Positions 28,083 to 62,482 of a stretch of 64,000 nucleotides of DNA are shown piece by piece (the first letter of the stretch is position 1; the number at the start of each line of letters is the position of its first letter). The notes below the pieces were generated by a model that worked only from the letters and a program-made list of their open reading frames with translations, searched no databases and was not told where the DNA came from. The position numbers were made by a program, and so were the translations under genes. The DNA comes from Candidatus Buchananbacteria bacterium (GTDB lineage: Bacteria; Patescibacteriota; Patescibacteriia; 2-01-FULL-39-33): positions 477-64,476 of the forward strand of contig JBAYGU010000001.1 in assembly GCA_041666505.1 (NCBI GenBank), written 5' to 3'.

Positions 28083-29372
28083 CTACTTCAACAGATCATC
28101 CAGCTCGCAAGACAGCAAGGCGGATTTATTTAGCAAGATCTGCTCATTGGGATTCAGATTATCCGCAGTCATCCGAATAAGCTTGGTGGTGATGCTGTCG
28201 CCTAACATAATCCTGCCGGTTTTCTTGAAATATTTCTCTGTCATTTGAAAAAAGTGGGTCGCATACTGTTTGAGAACTTCCTGCGGAGCGAGCCGACTAC
28301 TTATACCGTTATTCGTAAATTCTGTAATCTTCATTAAATTATCATCTATCATATTATTCATTTTACCATCTGTCGCAATAATCCAATCTTCATCAATCGC
28401 ATATTTAACAAGAACAATTTTCCCATCATCTGTTTCATACAAAAATTTAAACAAAAAAATATCCTTAAACATATCCTCAAAAATTACCAACTTTTGAAGA
28501 ATTTTAATATCTCTAATTTTATATTCATCCAAAAGACGCAGATAGCTCTCTCGCCAATTCTTTAACCAATTGGCAATGAAAGCCTGATCCAAGAAAAGCG
28601 GGGTCAAATCATGTTTGAGATTGGCATCCGTCTTCGGACTGTTTAAAATTTTTATCGTAACCTTGTCGAATAATTCTTTCGGATTCTTAATATCGATACC
28701 TTTGGCGATGAGATAATCGAAATCAGGCACGATTTTTTTGCCCATATACCACAGCAGGTCATAAATATCGCGCCCTTTTTCTTCATAAATTTCTTTCCCT
28801 GTCCCGCGAGAGCCGCGCAGAAAAATTGCGGCTAATTTGCTTGCCATGAGCGCACCCATATTATATGTCCAGATGACAAATGACAACTGTCCGCGATTTA
28901 TCGGCTGGCGGTCAATTACGGTTTTAGAAGCGGCAAAATGATTCAAATCAATTTTTACGTGGATCTGATCCGAAGGCCAGCCAAGGCTAAGTTCCTTGCC
29001 GACATGGAACTTCAAGATCAATCCTCTGCCGGCAGTTATTTTTAACGTTAAGAAACCGGCTCCGGCTCCATATGTATTTGCAAAATAATCTTCAATCTCC
29101 CTTTTCAATTCGCCCAAAAATTCCTCTGTCACCTCATGAGAAACCTCAAAATCCAAATCAACCGACATACGATCCAGGCCATGGATTATGCGCAGCGCGG
29201 AACCGCCATACATGACCCAATCGCCGTATTCCTGATGATGATAAATAAAATTCAGGACATAAAACTGCAGCTCTTCTTCAAGGGCGTTAAGGCGCGTCTC
29301 GGCATCGATACCGCCATAAGCTGACAGGCTCTCGATTTTCCTTTTCAAAATTGCGATTATCTGTTCGCTCAT
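28083..29372 (-). CDS. AbiEii-family nucleotidyltransferase (second, 429 aa)
   Basis: VMYGGSALRIIHGLDRMSVDLDFEV. Confidence 0.65.
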   Translation of the reverse strand: MSEQIIAILKRKIESLSAYGGIDAETRLNALEEELQFYVLNFIYHHQEYGDWVMYGGSALRIIHGLDRMSVDLDFEVSHEVTEEFLGELKREIEDYFANTYGAGAGFLTLKITAGRGLILKFHVGKELSLGWPSDQIHVKIDLNHFAASKTVIDRQPINRGQLSFVIWTYNMGALMASKLAAIFLRGSRGTGKEIYEEKGRDIYDLLWYMGKKIVPDFDYLIAKGIDIKNPKELFDKVTIKILNSPKTDANLKHDLTPLFLDQAFIANWLKNWRESYLRLLDEYKIRDIKILQKLVIFEDMFKDIFLFKFLYETDDGKIVLVKYAIDEDWIIATDGKMNNMIDDNLMKITEFTNNGISSRLAPQEVLKQYATHFFQMTEKYFKKTGRIMLGDSITTKLIRMTADNLNPNEQILLNKSALLSCELDDLLK

Positions 29373-30004
29373 ATGAGTATATTTTTAACAAATGAATAAA
29401 ATTTTTCCTGCTCTTCGATATCCATCTCGTCAAAATCAATGCGCAATTCCTCGATCATTGGATCAATATCTTCCAGCTTAATGCCGCGGAACTGGCGAGT
29501 TCTGAAATACAGAAGATCAAATAATGCTTTCGCCGGAGAAGCGATAAAAAAATCAAACCCCCCTGCATCAGATCCAGGCCTTCCCGTTACTAAGTGAAAA
29601 TCAGAAAAGAGCTCTTTTTTAATCGACTGATAGGCGAAATTGCCCGCCTTGGCCTGATAATCCTTAGTTACTTTAATGGTTACTGATGTGATAGAATTGA
29701 TCGATTCGGTCGCTAAGCCATAATACTGCAAGGCTGCCCAAGAACTGATATAAGACGGCACACGGATAATATTAGCAAGATAAAATGAATATGAACCGTC
29801 ATGCTTATACTTATCATAAAAAGCAGAGGTTACATATAAACCGTTTTTTAGCTGAAAAATCTCATTATATTTCAAAAATCGGCTGATATATGTGTCAACC
29901 GTGGAATCCTTAAGCCCCAACTGCTTACCGAGCTGATATACGGCGTTTTTATTGAAGTGGGGTAATGTTTTTAACTGCTCAAGCAGGTTTTTCTTGCTTT
30001 TCAT
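29369..30004 (-). CDS. AbiEi-family antitoxin (second)
   Basis: LKNGLYVT and an AbiEi-like C-terminal domain. It overlaps the downstream NTase gene by 4 nt. Confidence 0.6.
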   Translation of the reverse strand: MKSKKNLLEQLKTLPHFNKNAVYQLGKQLGLKDSTVDTYISRFLKYNEIFQLKNGLYVTSAFYDKYKHDGSYSFYLANIIRVPSYISSWAALQYYGLATESINSITSVTIKVTKDYQAKAGNFAYQSIKKELFSDFHLVTGRPGSDAGGFDFFIASPAKALFDLLYFRTRQFRGIKLEDIDPMIEELRIDFDEMDIEEQEKFYSFVKNILI

Positions 30005-51368: not shown

Positions 51369-51776
51369 CTAGCCCTTCAAAACATTATTAGTCAAATTAT
51401 CCATAACGAAGGCAGTGATAGCATAAGCAGCAAAAATAATAATGATACCAATAATAGCCTGCTGGATCATTTTTTTCGCTTTTTCTACTTTCTTGCCTTC
51501 TCCGCCATCAGTCATCCAAAGGAACCCAGCCCAAATAATGTAAAGTACCAAAAGCACGCCTAAAAATCCGATTAATATTGATACTAAACTTCCAATCCAT
51601 AAAACCAAATCCTGACTAGTTCCGGTACCAGAAAGCTGCGCATTAGTGTTAAAAGCATTCAAATTAGCCAGCCAACCATCATTGGCGCCAAAAGCCACCA
51701 ACGGCATGCCCATCAGCACGCTCAATCCGGCAAACGATGTCAAATACTTGCCGTATTTTTTTAATGTTTTCTTCAT
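51369..51776 (-). CDS. VirB2/TrbC-like small membrane protein, paralog 1
   Basis: Sec signal peptide followed by two TM helices with a conserved LW.GF.WMT..GE..KVEKAKKMI core. Tandem with four paralogs. Confidence 0.5.
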   Translation of the reverse strand: MKKTLKKYGKYLTSFAGLSVLMGMPLVAFGANDGWLANLNAFNTNAQLSGTGTSQDLVLWIGSLVSILIGFLGVLLVLYIIWAGFLWMTDGGEGKKVEKAKKMIQQAIIGIIIIFAAYAITAFVMDNLTNNVLKG

Positions 51777-51807
51777 AGTTTTTTTTATTTTAGTTATTAT
51801 ATTTTTA

Positions 51808-52248
51808 TTAATATGGATATACCTGCCCCGGCCCTCCCGGAAATAAAGGATCTAATATTGGCTGACCAGATTGGTTTGTCGTCTTGCTTAAACTGCTCAT
51901 CACGAATTGCGTAATACCATAAGCGGCGAAAACTATTATCAATCCGATCACCGCATTTTTTATCATGTCTTTGGCAGTCTGCACTTTTTTAGCATCATCC
52001 GCGGATAAAAATCCCCACATTATGCCGGCATAAATCAGCACCAGCACCAAGGCGACGCCTAAAAGAGATAAGACAACCCCGACTATAGAGCCGATAAACT
52101 TGACTATGTCGGAATTTTTCTTCAAGTCTGATCCGGCAGCGACATCCAAATTACTATACAAGCCGCCAGCCAGCGCGAACTGCGCGCCAAAAACCAAAAA
52201 AATGACAACAAATGAGATGATTGAATTTCTTATGTATTTATGATTCAT
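51808..52248 (-). CDS. VirB2/TrbC-like small membrane protein, paralog 2
   Basis: Same architecture as paralog 1 (IYAGIMWGFLSADDAKKVQTAKDMI). Confidence 0.5.
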   Translation of the reverse strand: MNHKYIRNSIISFVVIFLVFGAQFALAGGLYSNLDVAAGSDLKKNSDIVKFIGSIVGVVLSLLGVALVLVLIYAGIMWGFLSADDAKKVQTAKDMIKNAVIGLIIVFAAYGITQFVMSSLSKTTNQSGQPILDPLFPGGPGQVYPY

Positions 52249-52307
52249 AACGTAATTCTTATTCCAAGGGGCTCGATAAATCGAAGCCCCTATGGAATAA
52301 AATATTA

Positions 52308-52694
52308 TTAAGCGCCGATAGTGGTGCCTGTAATGGTTTGCAATTGAGAGAAAACAAAACTGGCGATAGCGTAAGAAGCAAAAATAATTATCAAGCCGAT
52401 AATGCCTGAGTAAATCATTTTCTTGGCCTTGTCTACCTTATCCGGCTCGCCGACTGCAGTCATCCAAATGAAGCCTCCCCAAAGGATGATAAGGACTGCG
52501 ATAACGCCCAAGAATCCAAGGATAACCTGGATTATGCCTTTGATCAAATCACTTAAGGTAGTGGTGCCCAGTCCCAAATCAGTCATCTGTGGAATATCTC
52601 CGGCAGCTCCGGCGATAGTCGGCAAGGCTAATAGCCCCAGCACGCCCAGAGTCATGGCTCCGGCAAACATTTTTTTCGTTGTAATTTTTTTCAT
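52308..52694 (-). CDS. VirB2/TrbC-like small membrane protein, paralog 3
   Basis: ILWGGFIWMTAVGEPDKVDKAKKMI core; AxA signal cleavage site. Confidence 0.5.
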   Translation of the reverse strand: MKKITTKKMFAGAMTLGVLGLLALPTIAGAAGDIPQMTDLGLGTTTLSDLIKGIIQVILGFLGVIAVLIILWGGFIWMTAVGEPDKVDKAKKMIYSGIIGLIIIFASYAIASFVFSQLQTITGTTIGA

Positions 52695-52839
52695 GTTTTC
52701 ACCCCCTTTCTCTGTCCAGTGCCCGCCGACCGCCGGTCGCCAATGGCGGAAGCGAGTACGGATAGCAGAGGAAATTGAGACGGCAATTCGGCCATCCCTT
52801 AATATATGAATTAATTATACAGTAAATTGAGCGACATTC

Positions 52840-53190
52840 CTAGCCAGGCGCTTGCAAGACATTCCTTAAGAAGAAAGTGATTACAGCGTAGGCAGTGAAT
52901 ATTATGAATAAGCCCAAAACCGCGTATTTCATCATCTCTTTGCCTTTGTCCACATTCTTCGGATTGACACCCGCCAGCAGATACAGCAATCCGCCATATA
53001 TGAATGCTATGAGAGCGAGAACGCCGGAAATTCCTAATGCCGCTTGAATGAATCTATTGGCTAGAAGCGGAATTGGATTACCAGATTCCAAGCCCAAGGG
53101 ATCGCCTATTTGAACGGCCGCTGCTGCAATTGAGGGCAGGATCAATGAGCCTAAAGCTAATATGGAAAATATTATTTTTTTCATAAACAT
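52840..53190 (-). CDS. VirB2/TrbC-like small membrane protein, paralog 4
   Basis: IYGGLLYLLAGVNPKNVDKGKEMM core. Confidence 0.5.
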   Translation of the reverse strand: MFMKKIIFSILALGSLILPSIAAAAVQIGDPLGLESGNPIPLLANRFIQAALGISGVLALIAFIYGGLLYLLAGVNPKNVDKGKEMMKYAVLGLFIIFTAYAVITFFLRNVLQAPG

Positions 53191-53211
53191 TACAATTTTT
53201 AATTAAGCAAA

Positions 53212-54003
53212 TTAATCAGTATATTCGCAAGAACAATTAAAGTAACCCGGCTGACTCGGAGAAGTAACCGCATTGAATGACCTTGAAACAGTATTAAGTC
53301 TTGTACATACAGCCAAACAAGAAACTTGTGCTTTTTCATCTCCATTAGCTCTTAACGAATCAGTCTTATAAAATGTAGTAACCGCTTGAATTTGTCCATC
53401 AGGCCTAACCGTTCCTGCTGGAACCTCAGATGACCCTGTTGAACCAGTAGCCGCCGCACTCGGAGCCTGAGTATCATATCCTTGGCAAACGCCCCAGCCG
53501 GCTGAACCGCTCACATTCCCGGTTATTTTCGATAACATATTCATTTTATCCGTGCCGCCGATGAGTGTCAGGATAACAAAATTCATAATGGAATAGCCAC
53601 CGAAAATAAAAGCCAAACCAATTATAACCGCCTTTAAAGTTCCTTTGGCTTTTTCCAGATTGGCGGGATTAAATGATACAGTCAAATACATTAAACCGGC
53701 ATAAACGAACATCAAGATAGCCACTGCGCCACTAACAGCCACAATCATATTGGACGCGTTAACGAATACTTGGATGAAATCGCACAAGCCGCATGGCCCG
53801 GAAGCAACAAATGCCGTAGCAGCCTGAGGACCATTCTGTCCCTGAATCGTAGTCGGAGTCTGAGCGCCGCCAGTCGCGCATTTTACATTCGCCAAAATCG
53901 AATTGGACATATCAATTGCCGCCCAAGCCGGAGTCGCAAAAAAAATTGCGGCGATAAGCGCCATGGCGATACTAATTGACTTGATTGGCTTAGAAATAAT
54001 CAC
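53212..54003 (-). CDS. Enlarged VirB2/TrbC-like paralog with Cys-rich extracellular N- and C-terminal extensions
   Basis: Central VYAGLMYLTVSFNPANLEKAKGTLK core. Flanked by CATGG...GPCGLCDF and CQGYD...CLAVC...NCSCEYTD regions. Confidence 0.45.
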   Translation of the reverse strand: MIISKPIKSISIAMALIAAIFFATPAWAAIDMSNSILANVKCATGGAQTPTTIQGQNGPQAATAFVASGPCGLCDFIQVFVNASNMIVAVSGAVAILMFVYAGLMYLTVSFNPANLEKAKGTLKAVIIGLAFIFGGYSIMNFVILTLIGGTDKMNMLSKITGNVSGSAGWGVCQGYDTQAPSAAATGSTGSSEVPAGTVRPDGQIQAVTTFYKTDSLRANGDEKAQVSCLAVCTRLNTVSRSFNAVTSPSQPGYFNCSCEYTD

Positions 54004-54017
54004 AAGGGATAGATAAA

Positions 54018-55421
54018 TTAATTAGATGGAGAAACAATCGTCTGAGCGATTTTCTGAGTCACAATCTGAATTACATCATTAATGCCCTGCGGATCAACTA
54101 CTAATAGGAATCTTTCGGCCATTTCCTTGAAAGCCTGTTCGGCGGCGAGAGCGTCCATGCCATAATACCAAGTCTTGGCAGTCAATGTCTGAGTCGAAGC
54201 TGCATGAAGATCTTCATTTTCCTGCTGCCCGGTTATCAGAGCCTTCTGGGCTGTCGGAGCATTAGTCACCGCCAGATACTTGGTGATTTCTTCCGGCTGA
54301 TTCAAGAAAAGCAGGAAGTTCCAAGCCTCATTCGTATATTTAGATTTTTTGGAAACTGATTCCAGCCAATAATTGGCATAATTGACGGTCGGATTACCCG
54401 GAATCTGCGGGATCGGCGCAATGCCGAAATTCACGCGCGAACTGGCGCGAATCTGGGCTAAGTGATAATTATAGCCGAAAAAGAATCCGACCTTGCCCGC
54501 CATGAAGGCCTGCAAAGAATTGGGCATGGTATTGTTCCAGGAGTAGACGCTTTTTACCGGTGAGGCGAAATCGGCATAGAACTGCAAAGCAGTCTGTCCA
54601 GGATTTACCCGTTTGCCGTCTTTCGTAATGCCAGAGAAGAAGGTGGGCATGTTCCTGACATCGCTCATGATGGCGCCGCTTTGCATCATTAAGACCGAGA
54701 TTATATCGAAGCTTCTTTCTACATTGAATCCCGTTCCCAAGGCGGTTCCGGATTGGATGATATTATTCTCGAACTCGAATTTAGTCGCCTTAATGACTGC
54801 TTCTTGAAAGGCGCTCCATGTTGTCGGAATCTGCGTGATGCCGGACTGGTTAGTTATATCCTTGTTATAGAACATGACCAAGCTATCAAGCGACAGCGGC
54901 AAACCGTAAACTTGATCGCCGATTACGGCATCATTGTAAATGGTATCCGCATATTTATCCTTTATCTGCCTTAAGGTGGGCGCCGTTTCATTCCTGATTT
55001 CTATGACTTTTTCCTTATTCAAATTGAAGAAACTTCCCTTCTCGATGATATAGCCCATCTTGATCTGAGCCGGCATAGGCTGGATCTTTGCCTGGTATTT
55101 CCTTAGCCAGCTTTCCGGTATGGAAAAAATATCCGGCCCGCGATCTTCGGCCAAAGCGTTGATAAGCTCCGTCTCATATTCCTCATAGCGGAACTTGCGG
55201 TAATTTATGGTGATATTCGGGTGTACTGTTTGATAATCCTTGATGACCTGATCGAACGCATCCTGATCATCCCAGACGCGCCAATAATTAAGCGTAATCG
55301 GCTTGACCGCCGCCTGCTGTTCCGCCGTCGTCAGCTTGCAGCCGAAGCCGGACACAGTCAAAAAAACTGCCGCCAGAAAGAGGTAGAGAATTTTATTTAA
55401 TGTCTTCTTCGTCATTGGCAT
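54018..55421 (-). CDS. Extracellular solute-binding protein (ABC-type, family 1), lipoprotein-like
   Basis: SBP_bac_1-like profile with a signal/lipobox-like LTVSGFGC. Start is taken at the MPMTKK Met rather than the track's longer N-terminus. Confidence 0.65.
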   Translation of the reverse strand: MPMTKKTLNKILYLFLAAVFLTVSGFGCKLTTAEQQAAVKPITLNYWRVWDDQDAFDQVIKDYQTVHPNITINYRKFRYEEYETELINALAEDRGPDIFSIPESWLRKYQAKIQPMPAQIKMGYIIEKGSFFNLNKEKVIEIRNETAPTLRQIKDKYADTIYNDAVIGDQVYGLPLSLDSLVMFYNKDITNQSGITQIPTTWSAFQEAVIKATKFEFENNIIQSGTALGTGFNVERSFDIISVLMMQSGAIMSDVRNMPTFFSGITKDGKRVNPGQTALQFYADFASPVKSVYSWNNTMPNSLQAFMAGKVGFFFGYNYHLAQIRASSRVNFGIAPIPQIPGNPTVNYANYWLESVSKKSKYTNEAWNFLLFLNQPEEITKYLAVTNAPTAQKALITGQQENEDLHAASTQTLTAKTWYYGMDALAAEQAFKEMAERFLLVVDPQGINDVIQIVTQKIAQTIVSPSN

Positions 55422-55458: not shown

Positions 55459-58400
55459 TTATGGAACTGCAATAGCATTATCCACTTCGCCAGCTGGCGG
55501 TACTTCAAAAATATCTTTAGTATTAATTGCGGTAAATCTTTTTTTCAATCCTTCAAAGGCCGTTTCAGCTGCCCTATTTTGAAAGGTGCGTCTGTCTTCA
55601 TTAAAATAAGACGCCTCCACTAACTTCTTAAGTTGTTCCGTTTTTTTCGAGTCAAAATGGATATCATTAATTTCTTCCGTAGTCAGGCCGCTGAGCCATT
55701 CCCTGGTCTTTTTTTTCTGATCATCCCGAAGCTTTCCTTTATTAAGCAGGATTTCCTTTACTAATTCTTCCAGTGTCTGGCGCTTGGCTTTTGTTTCAGA
55801 AACTTCAACTTTTGGTTCTTCCACTGCTGTCTCAGACTTTATTTCAGTCACGCTTCTTTCACCTTCCTGAAAAGTAATTCCCGGGATTTCCTTTTCCACT
55901 ATCGGCAAGCCTATCGGAACATTGCCTGCTTTTTTTTGTCTCAAATCTTCCAATGCGATACGGCCTCCAGTTTCACCTGCTCCGCCTTTCGGATTATTTG
56001 CGCCAACGGCTTCCGATTCCATATCTTTAGTCCGCGGTCCTTCTAATGGCCGCCTAGGATCGAAGGGCAAAACTGGCGGCACATCCCAATCCTTGCCGAT
56101 CGGCAGCTCAGGGTTTTTCATATCGAATGAGTAGCTGAATTTATTCGTTACTGATCCCGACATAACTCCCGCATCGATATTCTTACCGGATATCGTCGCC
56201 AAAACATGGCTATTGCCGGCATCATCAATAATCCTCAATTCGCCGAAACGGAAAGGTATATTGCCATCCTGCATGCTGTTTTTGGCGCCGAATAATTTAG
56301 AAATGGAATCCCCCAGATTAATCTTGCCTGAGCCGTCAGTCGAATCAGTCAGATAGCTTAAGCCCGCTTTATTGTCTCCCTCTGTCGGGAATATCGCCAC
56401 TTTAAGATGTTTGGCCAGTTCCCCTTTGCTCGCCCATTCAGCCAATTGATCCCTTAATCCGGCCAATTTCGTATCCACGCTGCCGTCAGGATTAGTGCCG
56501 AATTCTTTGACCGCGTCCTTGGCGTTTGCCGATAAATTCTCCAATATTCTAGAAGCATCGACCACGACATTGCCGGACGCATCCTTATTCATATAGAACA
56601 TCTGCTGCTTGCCCTCATGCTCGATCAAGCGATTGAAGAATGATGACATTTTCTTGCCCGGTTCATCATGCCAATCAGCCCGAGCATGCTTAGCCAGCCC
56701 TTCCTGCAGCTTGCTGGCCACGCTGACATTTTCCGTTACTTGCGTGTGAGTCTCATTAGGTATTATTCCGCTTTCTTTTAATGACTTCAATAATTCCGGA
56801 TCGATTCGACCAGTCTTGGGATCGAGTTCAATAGGACTTTTTATAATTGAATTTCCTTTGCTATCCAATAACTGGCCATCTCTGAATGCCAGATGCTGCA
56901 CGGCGCCTTCGCCGGCCGTTCCGTGATCGCCTTTGAACCAATGATACATATGTTCCAGGGCGCTTTCCGCTTTAGACGTTCTGCCCAATACATGCTCGCT
57001 GAATTGCCCAGTTATCCATTGGCCGATCGCACCCGCAGCCAAGCCAGTTCCTGCGCCTATTAAAAAACTCTTTTTTCTTTCCCAGCGTTTATAAGCCTCG
57101 AAATTATTATCGTTTTGTTCGATATTGCCGGTTAAATCAGCTTTGATTTCATTTATCAGCGCTTGCATTTCATGACCATCGGGCGACAGATTGAATTTTT
57201 TTCTGATATCTTTTAACGCCACTTTCAAATCCTTCATAGCGATCAGCTTTGTCTTATGCGCTTCGCCTTCCGCCTCAGAAACGCCGATCAAGTCGACTGA
57301 TTTTTCTTTTTCCAACTCAATGCGCGCCATCACATCAGCGATGGCTTTTTTATCCTCATCGGTCAAATTCTCCCTGGCCATGATTTCCGCCAGGCTCGCC
57401 TGCAATTGCTCGGCGCGCTTAAGGTCATAATTAAATTCCCTGATTTTATTCGTTCTTTTGGCATCATCATCAACTTCAATGCCCAAAGTCGAACGACGCA
57501 AATCCATTCCTCGATCATACTGCAGATCGCGAGAACGGCGCATGGCAGTAAACGTTCCGCCCATGCCGGCACCGATTAAAAGCGGCGCCAGCCACGGCGC
57601 TACTCCGGCAACAGTAACTAGCCCGCCCATTGCCGCCAATCTGGCCGTACCCTTGCCAATCACAGCGCCCGCGATTCCGCCGACTACGCCATAAGTCACA
57701 GGATTAGCTATTACTTTATTGAGTATGGGAATATTTTCTGTCGCGTCGACGAATTTTTCATACCACTTCAAAACCGGCTTCGGCTTGGTTTCATACAAGT
57801 CTTTCTGTTTCAATCCTAACTGAATATCCAAAGCCATCTCCGCCTTGACCTGCATTTCTATATTTGCCGCCTGTTCCGGACCAAATTCCTTTCCTAATTC
57901 TTTCACCTGGCTCTCCACTTGTTTCCGATAACCTTCAGCCAAAGCGAATAAATTATTGGCATACATCAAGCCTTCGGCTTCATCCTCCCGGCCGGTTGCG
58001 CCGAACTTCTTATTCTTGTTTTTCAATAGGGCGATAACCCGCACCTCTACGGTCTGATCGAACTCAGCGCGAGTCATATCGGAAGTGGCATAATCGACGA
58101 ATAATTGACCGACCACCAAATTGATTTCGTCATCTTGCACTAAGTCGCCTTTTTCATCAGCATCCATAACCTCATGAGTGAACTCTTCCAAAACAGCGTC
58201 CAATATCTCATATGATTTGTCAATATTTTCTGATTTGATTCCGCTGGTCAGCATCCTGGCTTCTATTTCCGCCATTAGATTCTTATTGTCCTTGATCGCC
58301 GCCAAAGCCTCTTTGTAATATTTCATCAAATAGCCCTTTTCGCCCAAGCGGACTGCAGCCCGCGTCAAAAAATTAGATTGAGATTTATCCAGCATGCTTC

Positions 58401-60045
58401 TGAGTTTCTGCTCCGCTTCACGCCAAGCCATGGCTTTGACAATTTCCGAGATATCAACGATGAAAATCTTTTCTCGCGATTTTTTAATGACTTCTAACTC
58501 TCCGGCGTTTTCCGGCTTGTGTTCGATCTGCAACTGTTCGACAATCGGATCAACAATCACCTTTTCTTTCGGAACAACTTCCAACTCGCTGGCGTTTCTT
58601 GAATCATGAGTAATTTGCAAAGGCGGTTTTATAACTCTTTTTTTAGGCGGTATGACTTCCAACTCGCCAGTACCCGGCTTGTGTTCAATCTGTAATGGTT
58701 CGTCATATGTGATCTCCAATGGCTTAATTTTCGGTTTTTCTTCCGGTTTCTTATCTTCCTGCAAAACAATCTCTCGACGTTTGCTCATCGCCTCCATAGC
58801 CAGCTGGTAATCCTTGTCAGCATCTCCGGTCGAACGCATATCCAACGACGCCAATACAGCTTCTAATTCCGTCCGCCAATGCTGTTCATCTCCCTTCATG
58901 TCCGGACGAATTTCAAAATATCCCCTGCTATTGGCTTGCAAGGTCTCAATTATACCGTTAATTTTCTTTAATTCCTCATCCAGCTTCTTCAATTTATCCC
59001 GATTAACCTCGCCTTCGCCGTCTTGAGCCGCTTTTTCCGTTACCTGCCTCAATGCTTCACCGGTCTGCAAAGGAAAATTATCAGAATCGACCGCATAATC
59101 AACGCCATCCTGATTAAGCGCCGCACTATTGCCCGCCTCCTTATCGGCCTTGGCCCAAGTCTGCCTCGTGGCATCTACCCATTGCCTTACCCTGCCCCTA
59201 ATAGCGCTTTTATTCGTTGATAAGCCATTATAAACTTGGTGCCAAGCGATTTTTTCTTGATGTTCCTGATCCGTCCCCTCCTTATCGCGTCCGATCTTTT
59301 CCAAAGTCTGTTCATACTGCTTCTTCAGATCTTTCGCCAATCTCGCCATGCTTTCCAAATCCTTTTTACGTTCTGCCAGCTTTCCGGCTTCCGTCTCCTG
59401 GCTCTTGGCAATAAGCTTCAGCTCCTCAATCAAGTCATCAACCGGAATGCCTTCGCGCTGGGAGCGATCATCCACTTTGACCTCAAAAGTCAGGTCAGCG
59501 CTGTCTTGAGCTTTATTTTTTGCATTCTCAACGCTTTTTATGATCCATTTTATGCGGTCGGATTTCTGCGCTTCGGGCAGATTCTTCAATATTTCCAGTC
59601 CTTCATCTACCTGGCTGATTATTTTTCTTCTAATCTCAATATTATTCGCAACTTTTTCCGGAGCCTGTTCGCTTACGTTAACAGTAGTTTCCGATTTCGA
59701 AGAAACTTCAATTTTTGCCTCGAACTCGGCTTTTAAGGCAGCGGCTTCGCGCTGGATCGCCTCAATCTCTTGCATGTCTTTTTGAAGATCCAAATCAGAT
59801 TCCTTGATTCCCAGCTCCCTTAATTCGGCCAATATCCTTTTTAAATCACCCTCAGTTTCCGCATTGATCTTATCAGCGCTTTCTTCCATTTTCTGTTTGA
59901 GCTTATCAAGAATTTCGCCCAAAGACTCCCGCCTGGCCAAGGCAACGTCTTCTGGATTTTTTATTTCTTCGATTTTTGCATCTTTAGACTCATCCATATT
60001 TATCCTATTTAATTTTTGACAGGATCCTTCTAATTTTTTCGTCAT
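55459..60045 (-). CDS. Giant (1528 aa) coiled-coil membrane protein with central glycine-zipper TM hairpin and internal ~25-aa repeats
   Basis: Uninterrupted 4.6-kb ORF. The N-terminal ~780 aa are charged and coiled-coil. A TM block (GVVGGIAGAVIGKG...LLIGAGMGGTF) follows. Three PLQIEHKPGTGELEVIPPKK-like repeats are present. Confidence 0.6.
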   Translation of the reverse strand: MTKKLEGSCQKLNRINMDESKDAKIEEIKNPEDVALARRESLGEILDKLKQKMEESADKINAETEGDLKRILAELRELGIKESDLDLQKDMQEIEAIQREAAALKAEFEAKIEVSSKSETTVNVSEQAPEKVANNIEIRRKIISQVDEGLEILKNLPEAQKSDRIKWIIKSVENAKNKAQDSADLTFEVKVDDRSQREGIPVDDLIEELKLIAKSQETEAGKLAERKKDLESMARLAKDLKKQYEQTLEKIGRDKEGTDQEHQEKIAWHQVYNGLSTNKSAIRGRVRQWVDATRQTWAKADKEAGNSAALNQDGVDYAVDSDNFPLQTGEALRQVTEKAAQDGEGEVNRDKLKKLDEELKKINGIIETLQANSRGYFEIRPDMKGDEQHWRTELEAVLASLDMRSTGDADKDYQLAMEAMSKRREIVLQEDKKPEEKPKIKPLEITYDEPLQIEHKPGTGELEVIPPKKRVIKPPLQITHDSRNASELEVVPKEKVIVDPIVEQLQIEHKPENAGELEVIKKSREKIFIVDISEIVKAMAWREAEQKLRSMLDKSQSNFLTRAAVRLGEKGYLMKYYKEALAAIKDNKNLMAEIEARMLTSGIKSENIDKSYEILDAVLEEFTHEVMDADEKGDLVQDDEINLVVGQLFVDYATSDMTRAEFDQTVEVRVIALLKNKNKKFGATGREDEAEGLMYANNLFALAEGYRKQVESQVKELGKEFGPEQAANIEMQVKAEMALDIQLGLKQKDLYETKPKPVLKWYEKFVDATENIPILNKVIANPVTYGVVGGIAGAVIGKGTARLAAMGGLVTVAGVAPWLAPLLIGAGMGGTFTAMRRSRDLQYDRGMDLRRSTLGIEVDDDAKRTNKIREFNYDLKRAEQLQASLAEIMARENLTDEDKKAIADVMARIELEKEKSVDLIGVSEAEGEAHKTKLIAMKDLKVALKDIRKKFNLSPDGHEMQALINEIKADLTGNIEQNDNNFEAYKRWERKKSFLIGAGTGLAAGAIGQWITGQFSEHVLGRTSKAESALEHMYHWFKGDHGTAGEGAVQHLAFRDGQLLDSKGNSIIKSPIELDPKTGRIDPELLKSLKESGIIPNETHTQVTENVSVASKLQEGLAKHARADWHDEPGKKMSSFFNRLIEHEGKQQMFYMNKDASGNVVVDASRILENLSANAKDAVKEFGTNPDGSVDTKLAGLRDQLAEWASKGELAKHLKVAIFPTEGDNKAGLSYLTDSTDGSGKINLGDSISKLFGAKNSMQDGNIPFRFGELRIIDDAGNSHVLATISGKNIDAGVMSGSVTNKFSYSFDMKNPELPIGKDWDVPPVLPFDPRRPLEGPRTKDMESEAVGANNPKGGAGETGGRIALEDLRQKKAGNVPIGLPIVEKEIPGITFQEGERSVTEIKSETAVEEPKVEVSETKAKRQTLEELVKEILLNKGKLRDDQKKKTREWLSGLTTEEINDIHFDSKKTEQLKKLVEASYFNEDRRTFQNRAAETAFEGLKKRFTAINTKDIFEVPPAGEVDNAIAVP

Positions 60046-60187
60046 CGATCTTTCTCAAGACTCGGCTGACTGCCGCATCCTTTTCTTTTTTTAATGCCAG
60101 CAATCTGCTTTCAAACTCAAGATAAATCGCCTCCAGTTCCTCTGGAGTCTTGATTGATGCAGCAGCATTATTTCTTTTGGCCGGCAT
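60005..60187 (-). CDS. Small basic hypothetical protein (60 aa)
   Basis: Sits immediately upstream of the giant gene in the same operon. Confidence 0.3.
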   Translation of the reverse strand: MPAKRNNAAASIKTPEELEAIYLEFESRLLALKKEKDAAVSRVLRKIDDEKIRRILSKIK

Positions 60188-60196
60188 ATAAGAAAA

Positions 60197-60514
60197 TTAA
60201 GCGTTCAAATATACAGCGCGGAATTCCAACATTGCCGCCGCCGTTATTTCTTCGATATTCTTCACTCGTCCCTTTAAAAACATCTGGAATTCCGGCTGGG
60301 AATAATCAACCGAGCCTTCCAGCATGCGATTCAGCTCTTGCGCCGTCTCCTCATCCAACTCCTTAGTTATGGATGAAAAAATAAAAGCCTGCAGGCGCGG
60401 ATACATACTGTTTACCATCGCCTCTTTTAATTCCGGAGACAAGTTATCGAACTTTTTTTCCTCGATTACTTTTTCCAAAAAAGCCCGTATTTCTTCTGGG
60501 ATAATTGTCGACAT
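60197..60514 (-). CDS. Hypothetical protein (105 aa), first gene of the cluster operon
   Basis: Acidic helical protein preceded by an AT-rich divergent promoter region. Confidence 0.35.
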   Translation of the reverse strand: MSTIIPEEIRAFLEKVIEEKKFDNLSPELKEAMVNSMYPRLQAFIFSSITKELDEETAQELNRMLEGSVDYSQPEFQMFLKGRVKNIEEITAAAMLEFRAVYLNA

Positions 60515-60686: not shown

Positions 60687-61208
60687 ATGATTGGAAATTA
60701 CCCTATGCCCACAGCCAAGAAAATCGGAGTCAAATTGGTCAAACAGACGCCTGGCTATTGCGGTCCGGCCAGCCTGAAGATGGTCTTAGATTATTTCGGC
60801 GTCAAAAAAAGCCTGGAAGCCTTGGCTAAAATGTCGAGCACGCCTGCTGCCGGAAAAACTGCCGGCGCCTCAGGCAAGAATCTTCTGGCGGCGGCCAAAA
60901 AATTAGGCTTTTCCGGCTCCATGAAAGACTGGGCGAACTTCAGTGATATCCGCAAATACGTCGAGAAGCAAGGCATCCCGGTCATCATTAGCTGGTTTTC
61001 AGGCTACGAGAGCCACTTTTCCGTCGTCGTTAAGATCGATAAAGATAATATTTATTTCCTGGACCCGGAATACTGCGCGCTCAGGAAAATGAGCCTGAAG
61101 AGATTCGAGAAGATCTGGTTCGAATTTGAAGGCGGACTTGGCCAGTCAACGCCCAAGCTCATCGTCAGGCGAATCATCGTCATCCAGCCGAAAAAATCTT
61201 CCAAATAA
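60687..61208 (+). CDS. Standalone peptidase C39-like (papain-fold) domain protein
   Basis: QTPGYCGPASLKMVLDYFG (catalytic Cys context) and a downstream His (ESHFSVVV). Confidence 0.55.
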   Translation: MIGNYPMPTAKKIGVKLVKQTPGYCGPASLKMVLDYFGVKKSLEALAKMSSTPAAGKTAGASGKNLLAAAKKLGFSGSMKDWANFSDIRKYVEKQGIPVIISWFSGYESHFSVVVKIDKDNIYFLDPEYCALRKMSLKRFEKIWFEFEGGLGQSTPKLIVRRIIVIQPKKSSK

Positions 61209-61384: not shown

Positions 61385-62482
61385 TTATCCGCTAATCCTC
61401 TTTCTGAATCTTCCGGTCATACCGACCGCCTTGCCTTTCGCCAAAATAGCGAAACGGCCGGCCGGCCTGCCGATCTCGTCGGTGATATACTTGATATTAG
61501 TATAAGTGGAAGGATAGCCGACCAACTCCATGAAGCCGGCTCCCCTGACTTTTTCTGCGCCAAAGCTGCCTTCGACTTTGAGCGGGCCTTCCCAATAATT
61601 AATCGAACCGAACAGCATCTCCTGATTATCTATCTTAGCTGTCAGATTGAGTTCGATATTCTTCTTTGCTATCTTTATTTTCCAAGCCAGCGGATAAGCC
61701 GCTTGGCTTTTCGGGCTGACCCATTTCTTGGCCAGCGGGATTATCTCAATATCCCGATAATTCTCCTGCCTGCCGTCTGCATAGCAGATATCGGCAAAAT
61801 AAGTCTTAGTTTTGCCATCATCATAAACGCAGCACACGGCTTCTGTGCCATTGTCCAGCTGGATTGAAAACCAATCCCAGCGATCCTGCGAATACTCAGT
61901 ATCCGCCCATTGATGATCCATCCACGATTTGCCGGCAACCTCGATCCACTTATCTTTAATTTTTATTCTGCCCTCTGTCTGTAAGCTGGTCAGAGAATAA
62001 TAGTAAGTTTTTTTCGACTGCAGATCCACGTAACCCTTACCGCCTTCTAGCAGCGGTTTCTTAGTCGAAGTCAGCGTCAATTCAATATCTTCATTTTTTA
62101 AAAAATACTTCGACTCGCTAATTTTTTCTATGACACAATTAATATAGCCATTTTTTATTTCCGGATTCAGATAATTGATGAACAGCTCGGGTCGGGAAAA
62201 GCTGTCATCAGAGACAACAGAAAAAGGCGCTATCCGATGCTGGAATTCTTTTCTCTTCAGATCAGTCAAAAGCGAATGCGAGAAATATGAAATCTTCAGC
62301 GGGATTTTGCTCAAGAATGGGATTTTGACTTTTTTCACATCCACCTTGAACAGGCAATCCATATATGAATACTCATTGCCCTTCTTGTCCTTAAGGTGTC
62401 CATTGAAATACCACCATTCGACAATGCAATCGTGGGCAGATTCGTCTGTCGGAAATTTTATCGGCCTGAATCCCTTGTGCAT
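61385..62482 (-). CDS. CrtC/AttH-like (lipocalin-like hydratase family) protein
   Basis: N-terminal FPTDESAHDCIVEWWYFNGHL matches the P.DH..H...EWWY.NGHL family signature. Confidence 0.55.
   Translation of the reverse strand: MHKGFRPIKFPTDESAHDCIVEWWYFNGHLKDKKGNEYSYMDCLFKVDVKKVKIPFLSKIPLKISYFSHSLLTDLKRKEFQHRIAPFSVVSDDSFSRPELFINYLNPEIKNGYINCVIEKISESKYFLKNEDIELTLTSTKKPLLEGGKGYVDLQSKKTYYYSLTSLQTEGRIKIKDKWIEVAGKSWMDHQWADTEYSQDRWDWFSIQLDNGTEAVCCVYDDGKTKTYFADICYADGRQENYRDIEIIPLAKKWVSPKSQAAYPLAWKIKIAKKNIELNLTAKIDNQEMLFGSINYWEGPLKVEGSFGAEKVRGAGFMELVGYPSTYTNIKYITDEIGRPAGRFAILAKGKAVGMTGRFRKRISG

Follow-up and report, generated by a model that had tools for sequence, protein, structure and literature searches.

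Giant proteins encoded next to DUF5663 in Patescibacteria: a candidate cargo or accessory of the type IV secretion system

Introduction

Patescibacteria make up a large share of uncultured bacterial diversity and live attached to host bacteria. The present work deals with a giant gene and the two small genes upstream of it, one encoding a DUF5663 protein, on the minus strand of a 64,000-nucleotide (nt) stretch of DNA from Candidatus Buchananbacteria bacterium (GenBank assembly GCA_041666505.1, contig JBAYGU010000001.1, positions 477 to 64,476), referred to below as the window. Arrays of VirB2-like pilin genes, such as the one downstream of this giant gene, are a known feature of Patescibacteria, and a system resembling type IV secretion systems (T4SS) and equipped with such an array was found to be indispensable for growth as an epibiont in the single species examined (PMC10633639; PMC12102498). 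Published work names no substrate of the Patescibacterial T4SS (PMC10633639; PMC12102498). The analysis defines a widespread, previously unannotated family of giant proteins and a conserved module of DUF5663, an approximately 60-residue protein and a giant, which is repeatedly linked to pilin and coupling-protein genes. The family is put forward as a candidate for cargo or accessory of the Patescibacterial T4SS.

Transmembrane effectors of T4SSs have one or two membrane segments with short loops and moderate hydrophobicity, and mostly adopt a Nin-Cin topology (PMC12981334 (review)). Like these effectors and those of type III secretion systems (T3SS), for example the transmembrane effectors of Legionella and the bilobed Inc proteins of Chlamydia, the giant protein lacks a Sec signal, has long helical arms and contains two moderately hydrophobic segments that a short loop connects. 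In these respects the window protein fits the description of a T4SS transmembrane effector, although a third hydrophobic helix complicates the match. Furthermore, relatives of the giant carry kinase, phosphatase and glycosyltransferase modules, and part of the family has T4SS genes as neighbours. Unlike the known effectors, the giant is far larger, has a highly conserved core, is produced by a monoderm-like epibiont and would have a bacterial target. No C-terminal secretion signal could be recognised in it, and no signal model exists for the Patescibacterial T4SS. Profile searches of PDB sequences and fold searches gave no sequence similarity, and no significant fold similarity, to any known effector.

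Modules in which small adaptors accompany polymorphic cargo are known from type VII secretion systems (T7SS), where LXG toxins occur with Lap1 and Lap2, and from type VI secretion systems (T6SS), where effectors occur with Eag or DUF4123 adaptors. T6SS and T7SS are not known from Patescibacteria. The locus described here shares with these modules the small, helical, conserved proteins encoded upstream, the very large and variable protein that follows them and the variable termini. It differs in that no LXG, PAAR, Rhs, toxin or other trafficking domain was found by Pfam and no common N-terminal motif was seen in the 17 N-termini read. Nor is an immunity-like gene evident downstream, as would be usual for polymorphic toxins; the downstream gene encodes a solute-binding lipoprotein.

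Large T4SS-linked membrane proteins with long hydrophilic extensions are known as well, namely the extended VirB6/TraG-type subunits. VirB6 proteins are polytopic, with at least five helices and a Pfam TrbL/VirB6 match, whereas the giant has three weak helices and no such match. Matches to glycine-zipper or alpha-helical pore formers of the ClyA family (XaxB, PaxB, MakA) are insignificant and of the kind that any long helical hairpin would typically give. The match to PaxB falls on the N-terminal domain, not on the hydrophobic region, and sizes and domain layouts differ. The likeness of the giant to T4SS transmembrane effectors and to adaptor-cargo modules is one of logic only. A description of the giant or the DUF5663 module was found in no family, structure or paper, which places it outside the known kinds, while the mechanism proposed below borrows known secretion logic. 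Literature searches on DUF5663 and DUF8128 likewise turned up nothing on the giant family.

The DUF5663 module

On the minus strand of the window, the giant gene comes third in a closely packed row of genes that share one direction. Gaps of 9, 7, approximately 37 and 14 nt separate the DUF5663 gene, the gene for a protein of 60 amino acids (aa), the giant gene, the gene for a solute-binding protein (SBP) and the pilin genes. In this order the set comprises:

60197..60514, minus strand: DUF5663 gene, first in the operon; 105 aa, acidic, isoelectric point (pI) 4.6 (Pfam E 6.7e-4; family confirmed in relatives)
60005..60187, minus strand: gene for a basic helical protein of 60 aa, pI 9.8 (translation; homologues at the same position elsewhere)
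55459..59997, minus strand: giant gene; 1512 aa, 168.7 kDa, pI 5.3 (the longest open reading frame (ORF) reaches 60045)
54018..55421, minus strand: gene for an orphan solute-binding lipoprotein, SBP_bac_1, with lipobox SGFGC (Pfam and true start, the latter approximately 37 nt past the giant stop codon)
51369..54003, minus strand: five VirB2-like T4SS pilin genes, at 53212-54003, 52840-53190, 52308-52694, 51808-52248 and 51369-51776 (Pfam T4SS_pilin PF18895, E 1e-6 to 5e-12)

Among the scans for related loci, one of genome contigs yielded one locus, and one of metagenomes with a 12-sequence alignment yielded eight. Hidden Markov models (HMMs) from the window and the first loci were run over all fetched loci. 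A DUF5663 gene adjoins the giant gene in every locus with enough flanking sequence. In 14 non-redundant loci it lies upstream; in L021 it is found directly downstream. The DUF5663-adjacent loci are the window/L007, L001/2/12, L003, L005, L006, L008, L009/16, L010, L013, L014, L015, L017, L018, L019 and L020. In most loci with DUF5663 upstream, a basic gene of approximately 60 codons lies between the two. Homologues of 56-65 aa were found at this position in L001, L003, L005, L006, L017, L019, L020 and L022, and in L018 a 62-aa gene was called there that has no HMM match. Across the loci the pI of the DUF5663 proteins is 4.5-5.0 and that of the ~60-aa proteins 9.6-10.1. Scans of both small proteins against Pfam, NCBIfam, PHROG and PADLOC gave nothing useful apart from DUF5663, the PHROG matches being at chance level.

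A search begun from a DUF5663 protein that had been found independently of the giant led to the same arrangement, with a 62-aa gene followed by a 1396-aa gene; in that locus a member of the giant family lies convergent. The module can be defined as a co-directional, adjacent DUF5663 gene, usually a basic ~60-aa gene, and then a gene of more than 1200 codons, and this is the arrangement of the window. The DUF5663 and ~60-aa pair also precedes giants of 1389-1881 aa without detectable similarity to the family:

14742-20387 of L006, minus strand: unrelated DUF5663-linked giant
7719-11888 of L020, minus strand: unrelated DUF5663-linked giant
10530-14720 of L022, plus strand: unrelated DUF5663-linked giant

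Because the pair also precedes these unrelated giants, the small genes are taken to be the constant element and the giant the variable one. No common N-terminal motif was seen when the opening 130 residues of 17 giants with a DUF5663 neighbour were read. The unrelated giant of L022 has no hydrophobic segment and that of L020 has borderline windows only. That the unrelated giants (e.g. L006 14742-20387) might be distant relatives of the family was considered and rejected, as neither HMM nor BLAST gave a signal. The unrelated giants lie convergent to the family member, and a Wzz-like gene is found just upstream in L006 and L022.

The first-pass annotation of the window had suggested a check of whether homologues co-occur with VirB2-like arrays. 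They do in part of the family: arrays of four to five VirB2-like pilin genes together with an SBP gene adjoin the module in four non-redundant loci, co-directional with the giant in the window and L003 and divergent from it in L001/L012 and L017. Coupling-protein-like genes adjoin the module in L016/L009 and L021, and lie further away in L004. The coupling-protein-like match in L016/L009 scores 32.9 bits for TrwB_AAD_bind and 25.9 bits for TraG-D_C, both over the curated cut-offs. Linkage to pilins is lineage-specific. The partner present throughout is DUF5663, which the first-pass annotation had not mentioned.

With regard to the arrays themselves, the SBP_bac_1 lipoprotein gene heads the pilin array in all four loci without an adjoining permease or ATPase gene of an ATP-binding cassette transporter (window 54018-55421, minus strand; L003 9652-11052; L012 4542-5948; L017 6005-7402). 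The lipoprotein seems to belong with the pilin module rather than with a transporter. The first pilin gene of the window (53212-54003) encodes 263 aa by the longest ORF, with a GTG start, and is about twice as long as the others. Its pilin domain spans residues 82-134 only, and the counterpart in L003 has 207 aa.

The giant gene and its family

The window carries an uninterrupted minus-strand ORF of 1528 codons at 55459..60045, as follows from the window ORF listing and the translation, and its length is far beyond chance expectation. The ORF had been reported by the first-pass annotation and proved real and unbroken, while its start needed correction. The true start is most likely ATG 59997 (MDESKDA..., M17 of the long ORF) rather than 60045. 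This start is preferred because M17 is where the close homologues P0001, P0003 and P0004 start, AGGA precedes the ATG, and overlap with the conserved 60-aa gene at 60005-60187, into which the stretch 59998-60045 of the long ORF extends, is avoided. Residue numbers below follow the 1528-aa numbering of the longest ORF unless stated otherwise.

The product is conserved, with 89% identity to P0001. All full-length homologues align without a break along the entire length of the giant. The frameshifts envisaged earlier as a refutation were not found in the window, and this is a single gene rather than several. One near-identical copy is split. Contig L007 (JGI 3300037810), from another metagenome sample, matches the window across 7882 nt except for a single base, a G to T change at window position 56421 (L007 4912) that turns GAA (E1193 in the 1512-aa numbering) into TAA and divides the giant into called genes of 1192 and 313 aa. 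This stop codon either reflects an error in sequencing or marks a naturally occurring nonsense allele; it is the window that carries the gene intact.

No Pfam (E <= 0.01), NCBIfam, PHROG (E <= 0.1) or PADLOC family matched the giant, and no PDB sequence matched the family profile. A word-indexed homologue search yielded only seven relatives and falsely hinted at rarity. When 1.84 billion representative proteins were searched exhaustively with a profile, 386 related clusters, counted at 50% identity, came up at E <= 1e-3, of which 120 at E <= 1e-30. Most relatives are 1200-2300 aa long. Those with a source name are all annotated as 'hypothetical protein' from Patescibacteria, Parcubacteria or Moraniibacteriota, and none of them has an established function. 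Several paralogues may occur per genome, as L004 and L006 come from the same assembly.

Nearly all relatives have the region of aa ~510-1015 in common. This shared core consists, in order, of a helical region, a hydrophobic pair, the motif RRSRDLQYDRGMDLRR, a second helical region and a third hydrophobic helix. A subset of relatives has the N-terminal domain (aa ~129-430), and a subset the C-terminal domain (aa ~1050-1335), the latter being kept in about half of the relatives. The ends of the proteins are shuffled, and many relatives have an enzyme domain where the window giant has a tail rich in Lys and Glu (KE-rich). Among the 152 best representatives, 35 carry a GT2-like (DxD) domain, in every case at the C-terminus. 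A batch of 26 relatives included three with a protein kinase domain, three with PP2C and one with GT9. Past the third helix, the enzyme-tailed relatives show no strong or recurrent hydrophobic segment, only a few isolated moderate windows in the tails. A further domain, of ~350 aa and with a DHH motif, precedes the core in six relatives and follows it in five, and the head and tail copies match each other at E 1e-33 to 1e-51. This domain has no Pfam match even at E <= 1 and looks like an undescribed DHH-like family. Its DHH...SATK motifs are found in P0015, P0017, P0021, P0024, P0027, P0036, P0044, P0045, P0108, P0109 and P0007.

Directly downstream of P0015 lies a gene (L018 14485-15957) that matches the HopA1 effector family (Pfam E 1.4e-11). 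The HopA1 family is otherwise known from type III effectors of plant pathogens.

Domain structure of the giant protein

AlphaFold2 models were built with family alignments for aa 17-499, with a mean predicted local distance difference test (pLDDT) of 84.2, and for aa 500-1345, with a mean of 80.6. Together with the sequence they divide the giant into the following parts:

58756..59661, minus strand: N-terminal helical domain, aa 129-430, with motifs EGIPVDDL and HWRTELEA...KRRE; kept in a subset of relatives
58459..58701, minus strand: Pro/Lys/Glu-rich linker, aa 449-529, with three repeats of 25-29 aa, LQI[ET]H..x..ELEV (peptide repeat reading)
57544..57714, minus strand: bilobed Gly/Ala-rich hydrophobic region, aa 778-834 (hydropathy and conservation in 50 relatives)
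57004..57069, minus strand: third helix, moderately hydrophobic and Gly/Ala-rich, aa 993-1014 (hydropathy, alignment of 50 relatives and model)
56041..56898, minus strand: C-terminal alpha/beta domain, aa ~1050-1335 (AlphaFold2 pLDDT mostly 80-96)
55462..56040, minus strand: Gly/Pro/Glu linker of low complexity, then the KE-rich helical tail, aa 1336-1528 (composition)

Inspection of the sequence revealed no signal peptide at the N-terminus, which is hydrophilic and charged, in agreement with what had been noted before. Long helices were modelled at aa 31-115 (H15-61 and H71-99 of the AlphaFold2 model). The N-terminal part had been described as a highly charged coiled coil. It is indeed charged and helical, but aa ~129-420 form a confidently folded domain (pLDDT >95), in which the chain folds back as a compact helical bundle with a small beta-hairpin. 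Structure prediction, which had been proposed as a check, gave long helices, this compact bundle and the alpha/beta fold of the C-terminal domain. The second model is mainly helical over aa 525-770, with mixed confidence.

The three repeats of ~25 aa reported earlier are present at the peptide level, at aa 449-529, but at 58459-58701 in the DNA rather than at 58540-58760. They are weak in the DNA, where only pairs of 20-32 nt at 84-86% identity were found, and Tandem Repeats Finder detected no DNA tandem repeat in the giant gene. Two copies are present in P0001, which is 93% identical across the repeat region, against three here, so the copy number shifts between close relatives.

The two closely spaced, Gly-rich hydrophobic helices that had been placed after about 780 residues are found at aa 781-797 and 803-834. 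They have glycine-zipper spacing and a basic loop of approximately 5 aa, and the conserved motif RRSRDLQYDRGMDLRR follows directly. The third helix, which forms the end of a 61-residue helix in the AlphaFold2 model, had been overlooked. All three keep their position and character in 50 relatives. The hydropathy of the segments is moderate (Kyte-Doolittle maxima 1.2-1.8), and the hydrophobic pair carries low pLDDT. The C-terminal domain has the motifs WHDEPGK, FEGKQQM, GTNPDGSVD and PPVLPFDPRRPLE. Foldseek against PDB gave no match at E <= 1e-3, and the C-terminal domain has no significant PDB fold match. The KE-rich tail recognised earlier was confirmed, K and E making up 31% of aa 1401-1500. 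Pfam and NCBIfam scans found no recognisable catalytic domain in the window giant, consistent with the earlier view that it is not an enzyme.

Topology and possible functions

The flanks of the hydrophobic helices contain on average, over 50 sequences, 6.1 K and R residues after helix 2, 5.3 before helix 3 and 1.9 after helix 3. Taken alone, this positive-inside pattern predicts an N-in protein with three passes and its C-terminus out. The first-pass annotation had proposed a cytoplasmic coiled coil, a transmembrane hairpin and a large exported domain. A hairpin returns the chain to the inside, so this layout does not hold as proposed, and only the third helix could export the C-terminal part, in which case the predicted pattern would rescue the exported domain. 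Because the enzyme tails depend on adenosine triphosphate (ATP) or nucleoside diphosphate (NDP)-sugars and the DHH-motif domain occurs at either end, both ends of the giants probably lie in the same nucleotide-containing compartment, which argues against a resident protein with a cytoplasmic N-terminus and an exported C-terminus. The shared compartment would be the cytoplasm either of another cell or of the producer, in which latter case helix 3 would not span the membrane.

It is tentatively proposed, by analogy and from the gene neighbourhood, that the giant is a chaperoned, membrane-inserting cargo tied to a T4SS-like pilus. The three genes would then constitute a module of Patescibacteria in which the acidic DUF5663 protein and the basic ~60-aa helical protein act as a dedicated chaperone/adaptor pair, keeping the signal-less giant, the cargo subunit, competent and handing it to the T4SS-like pilus machinery. 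The glycine-zipper hairpin and the third helix would anchor the giant with both ends on the same nucleotide-containing side. The target membrane would most plausibly be that of the host cell, at the contact between epibiont and host, as for transmembrane T4SS effectors. The variable terminal modules may act at the target, being KE-rich and non-enzymatic in the window and a glycosyltransferase, kinase or phosphatase in relatives. Since the small pair precedes unrelated giants as well, the combination of conserved adaptors and polymorphic cargo is counted in favour of this cargo role. It is further backed by the small acidic and basic partners, the gaps of 7-9 nt, the lack of a signal peptide, the moderate hydropathy of the segments with their ~5-aa loop, which matches the profile of T4SS transmembrane effectors (PMC12981334), the T4SS neighbours, the effector-like polymorphic enzyme ends and the paralogues in one genome. 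A bolder version, in which the DUF5663 and 60-aa pair marks the substrates of the Patescibacterial T4SS and both the family and the unrelated giants are transmembrane effectors for the host membrane, is rather unlikely. In the membrane of the host bacterium the glycine-zipper helices would anchor or oligomerise the giants, and the variable enzyme modules would act on the host.

Several observations weigh against a cargo role. The pilin-linked loci are related and hence not independent, and about half of the informative loci (L010, L018, L019, L006, L020 and L022) have no T4SS gene within 8-10 kb. No VirB4, VirD4 or VirB6 was found among the large window ORFs scanned. Genes for envelope glycans (Wzz, Wzy_C, Polysacc_synt, PMT_2, GtrA, LytR) recur nearby. 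Resident membrane enzymes just as typically have a strongly conserved core with a conserved motif beside the membrane, as well as GT2 fusions, and the fold searches gave nothing specific. Neither a Nin-Cin hairpin nor enzymes in the cytoplasm can be squared with the three-pass, C-out prediction unless further assumptions are made. Finally, what is shown comprises the gene with its domain layout, the family's size, the linkage to DUF5663, that of part of the family to pilin or coupling-protein genes and the shuffling of terminal domains; that the small proteins bind the giant, that it is secreted, which membrane it enters and what it does there are all deduced from neighbourhood and analogy.

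In the main rival explanation, which we regard as possible though doubtful, the giant would be a scaffold resident in the producer, on its membrane's cytoplasmic face. The hairpin would serve as anchor, helix 3 would lie in or on the membrane without crossing it, and the cytoplasmic arms would organise or carry GT2, kinase and PP2C domains for envelope glycan, pilin or signalling, with the small proteins as assembly or regulatory subunits. Such a scaffold explains the ATP- or NDP-sugar-dependent tails and the conserved core with its motif RRSRDLQYDRGMDLRR equally well. It also suits the lack of a convincing membrane helix beyond helix 3, the DHH-motif domain at either end, the envelope-glycan genes and the chromosomal, housekeeping surroundings of the giant gene in many loci. 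However, it leaves unexplained why the small pair precedes unrelated giants, two of which have little or no hydrophobic segment, and it does not directly account for the way in which coupling-protein genes and pilin arrays repeatedly adjoin the module; the positive-inside pattern, moreover, suggests that helix 3 does cross the membrane. The same pattern, with basic flanks after helix 2 and before helix 3 and not after helix 3, speaks for a surface tether or adhesin, that is, the layout of the first-pass annotation with a third helix added, in which the N-terminal arm is cytoplasmic and the C-terminal domain and tail are outside with the lipoprotein and the pilins. The downstream genes of the operon do encode extracytoplasmic proteins (the SBP lipoprotein and the pilins) and the window member has no enzyme tail, yet this alternative is considered improbable, as the C-terminal domain of relatives leads straight into GT2-like, kinase or PP2C domains that would be useless outside the cell, the DHH-motif domain is found on both sides of the membrane region, and the helices are short, Gly-rich and only moderately hydrophobic.

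The 'ruler' of the first-pass annotation, taken in the sense of a tape-measure-like protein derived from a phage or element and served by two upstream chaperones, is very improbable and has been largely refuted. The giant shares with phage tape-measure proteins and their G/GT chaperones its great length, its largely helical nature, the internal Gly-rich hydrophobic segments and the two small genes immediately upstream, and its repeat copy number varies between close relatives. Against this, the giant has no PHROG or Pfam tape-measure match and the small proteins have chance-level PHROG matches only. No phage structural family was found among the scanned window neighbours, which comprise housekeeping genes, a lipoprotein and pilins, or the annotated genes of related loci, and a folded alpha/beta C-terminal domain with enzyme tails would be uncharacteristic. 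The cargo role is ranked first and the resident scaffold is kept as its main rival. If the module consists of cargo and adaptors, the question of what the Patescibacterial T4SS secretes becomes directly testable, and if the adaptor pair truly marks effectors, the long-sought cargo of a secretion system essential for epibiotic growth would have been identified. As a resident scaffold the giant would still be among the largest conserved investments in genomes of ~1 Mb, and would provide the first context for DUF5663.

Neighbouring genes in the window

A stand-alone Peptidase_C39-like gene of 173 aa (60687-61208, plus strand; C39 E 2.9e-16, C70 E 1.3e-10) is divergent from the DUF5663 operon across an AT-rich spacer of ~170 nt. 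It is also found in L007, as a 167-aa gene at 125-628 with C39/C70 matches, and not in L003. A scan of its product, the DUF5663 protein, the 60-aa protein, the SBP and the giant with PADLOC gave no match. Just past the C39-like gene lies a gene for a CrtC-like double-lipocalin (61385-62482, minus strand; CrtC N-terminal E 1.4e-28, Lipocalin_9 E 8.7e-30). Other neighbours include PGI and ClpP genes. The counts from a promoter and terminator scan were near expectation and of no help in defining the operon.

In the 64-kb window no tRNA gene was found and no Rfam family reached its gathering threshold. A gene for an AbiEii-type nucleotidyltransferase toxin lies at 28083-29372 on the minus strand (Pfam E 5.2e-19), and an ORF at 29369-30004, the end of which overlaps the start of the AbiEii gene by 4 nt, may encode its partner. 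The genes of the window are overwhelmingly on the minus strand, and the GC skew is steadily negative.

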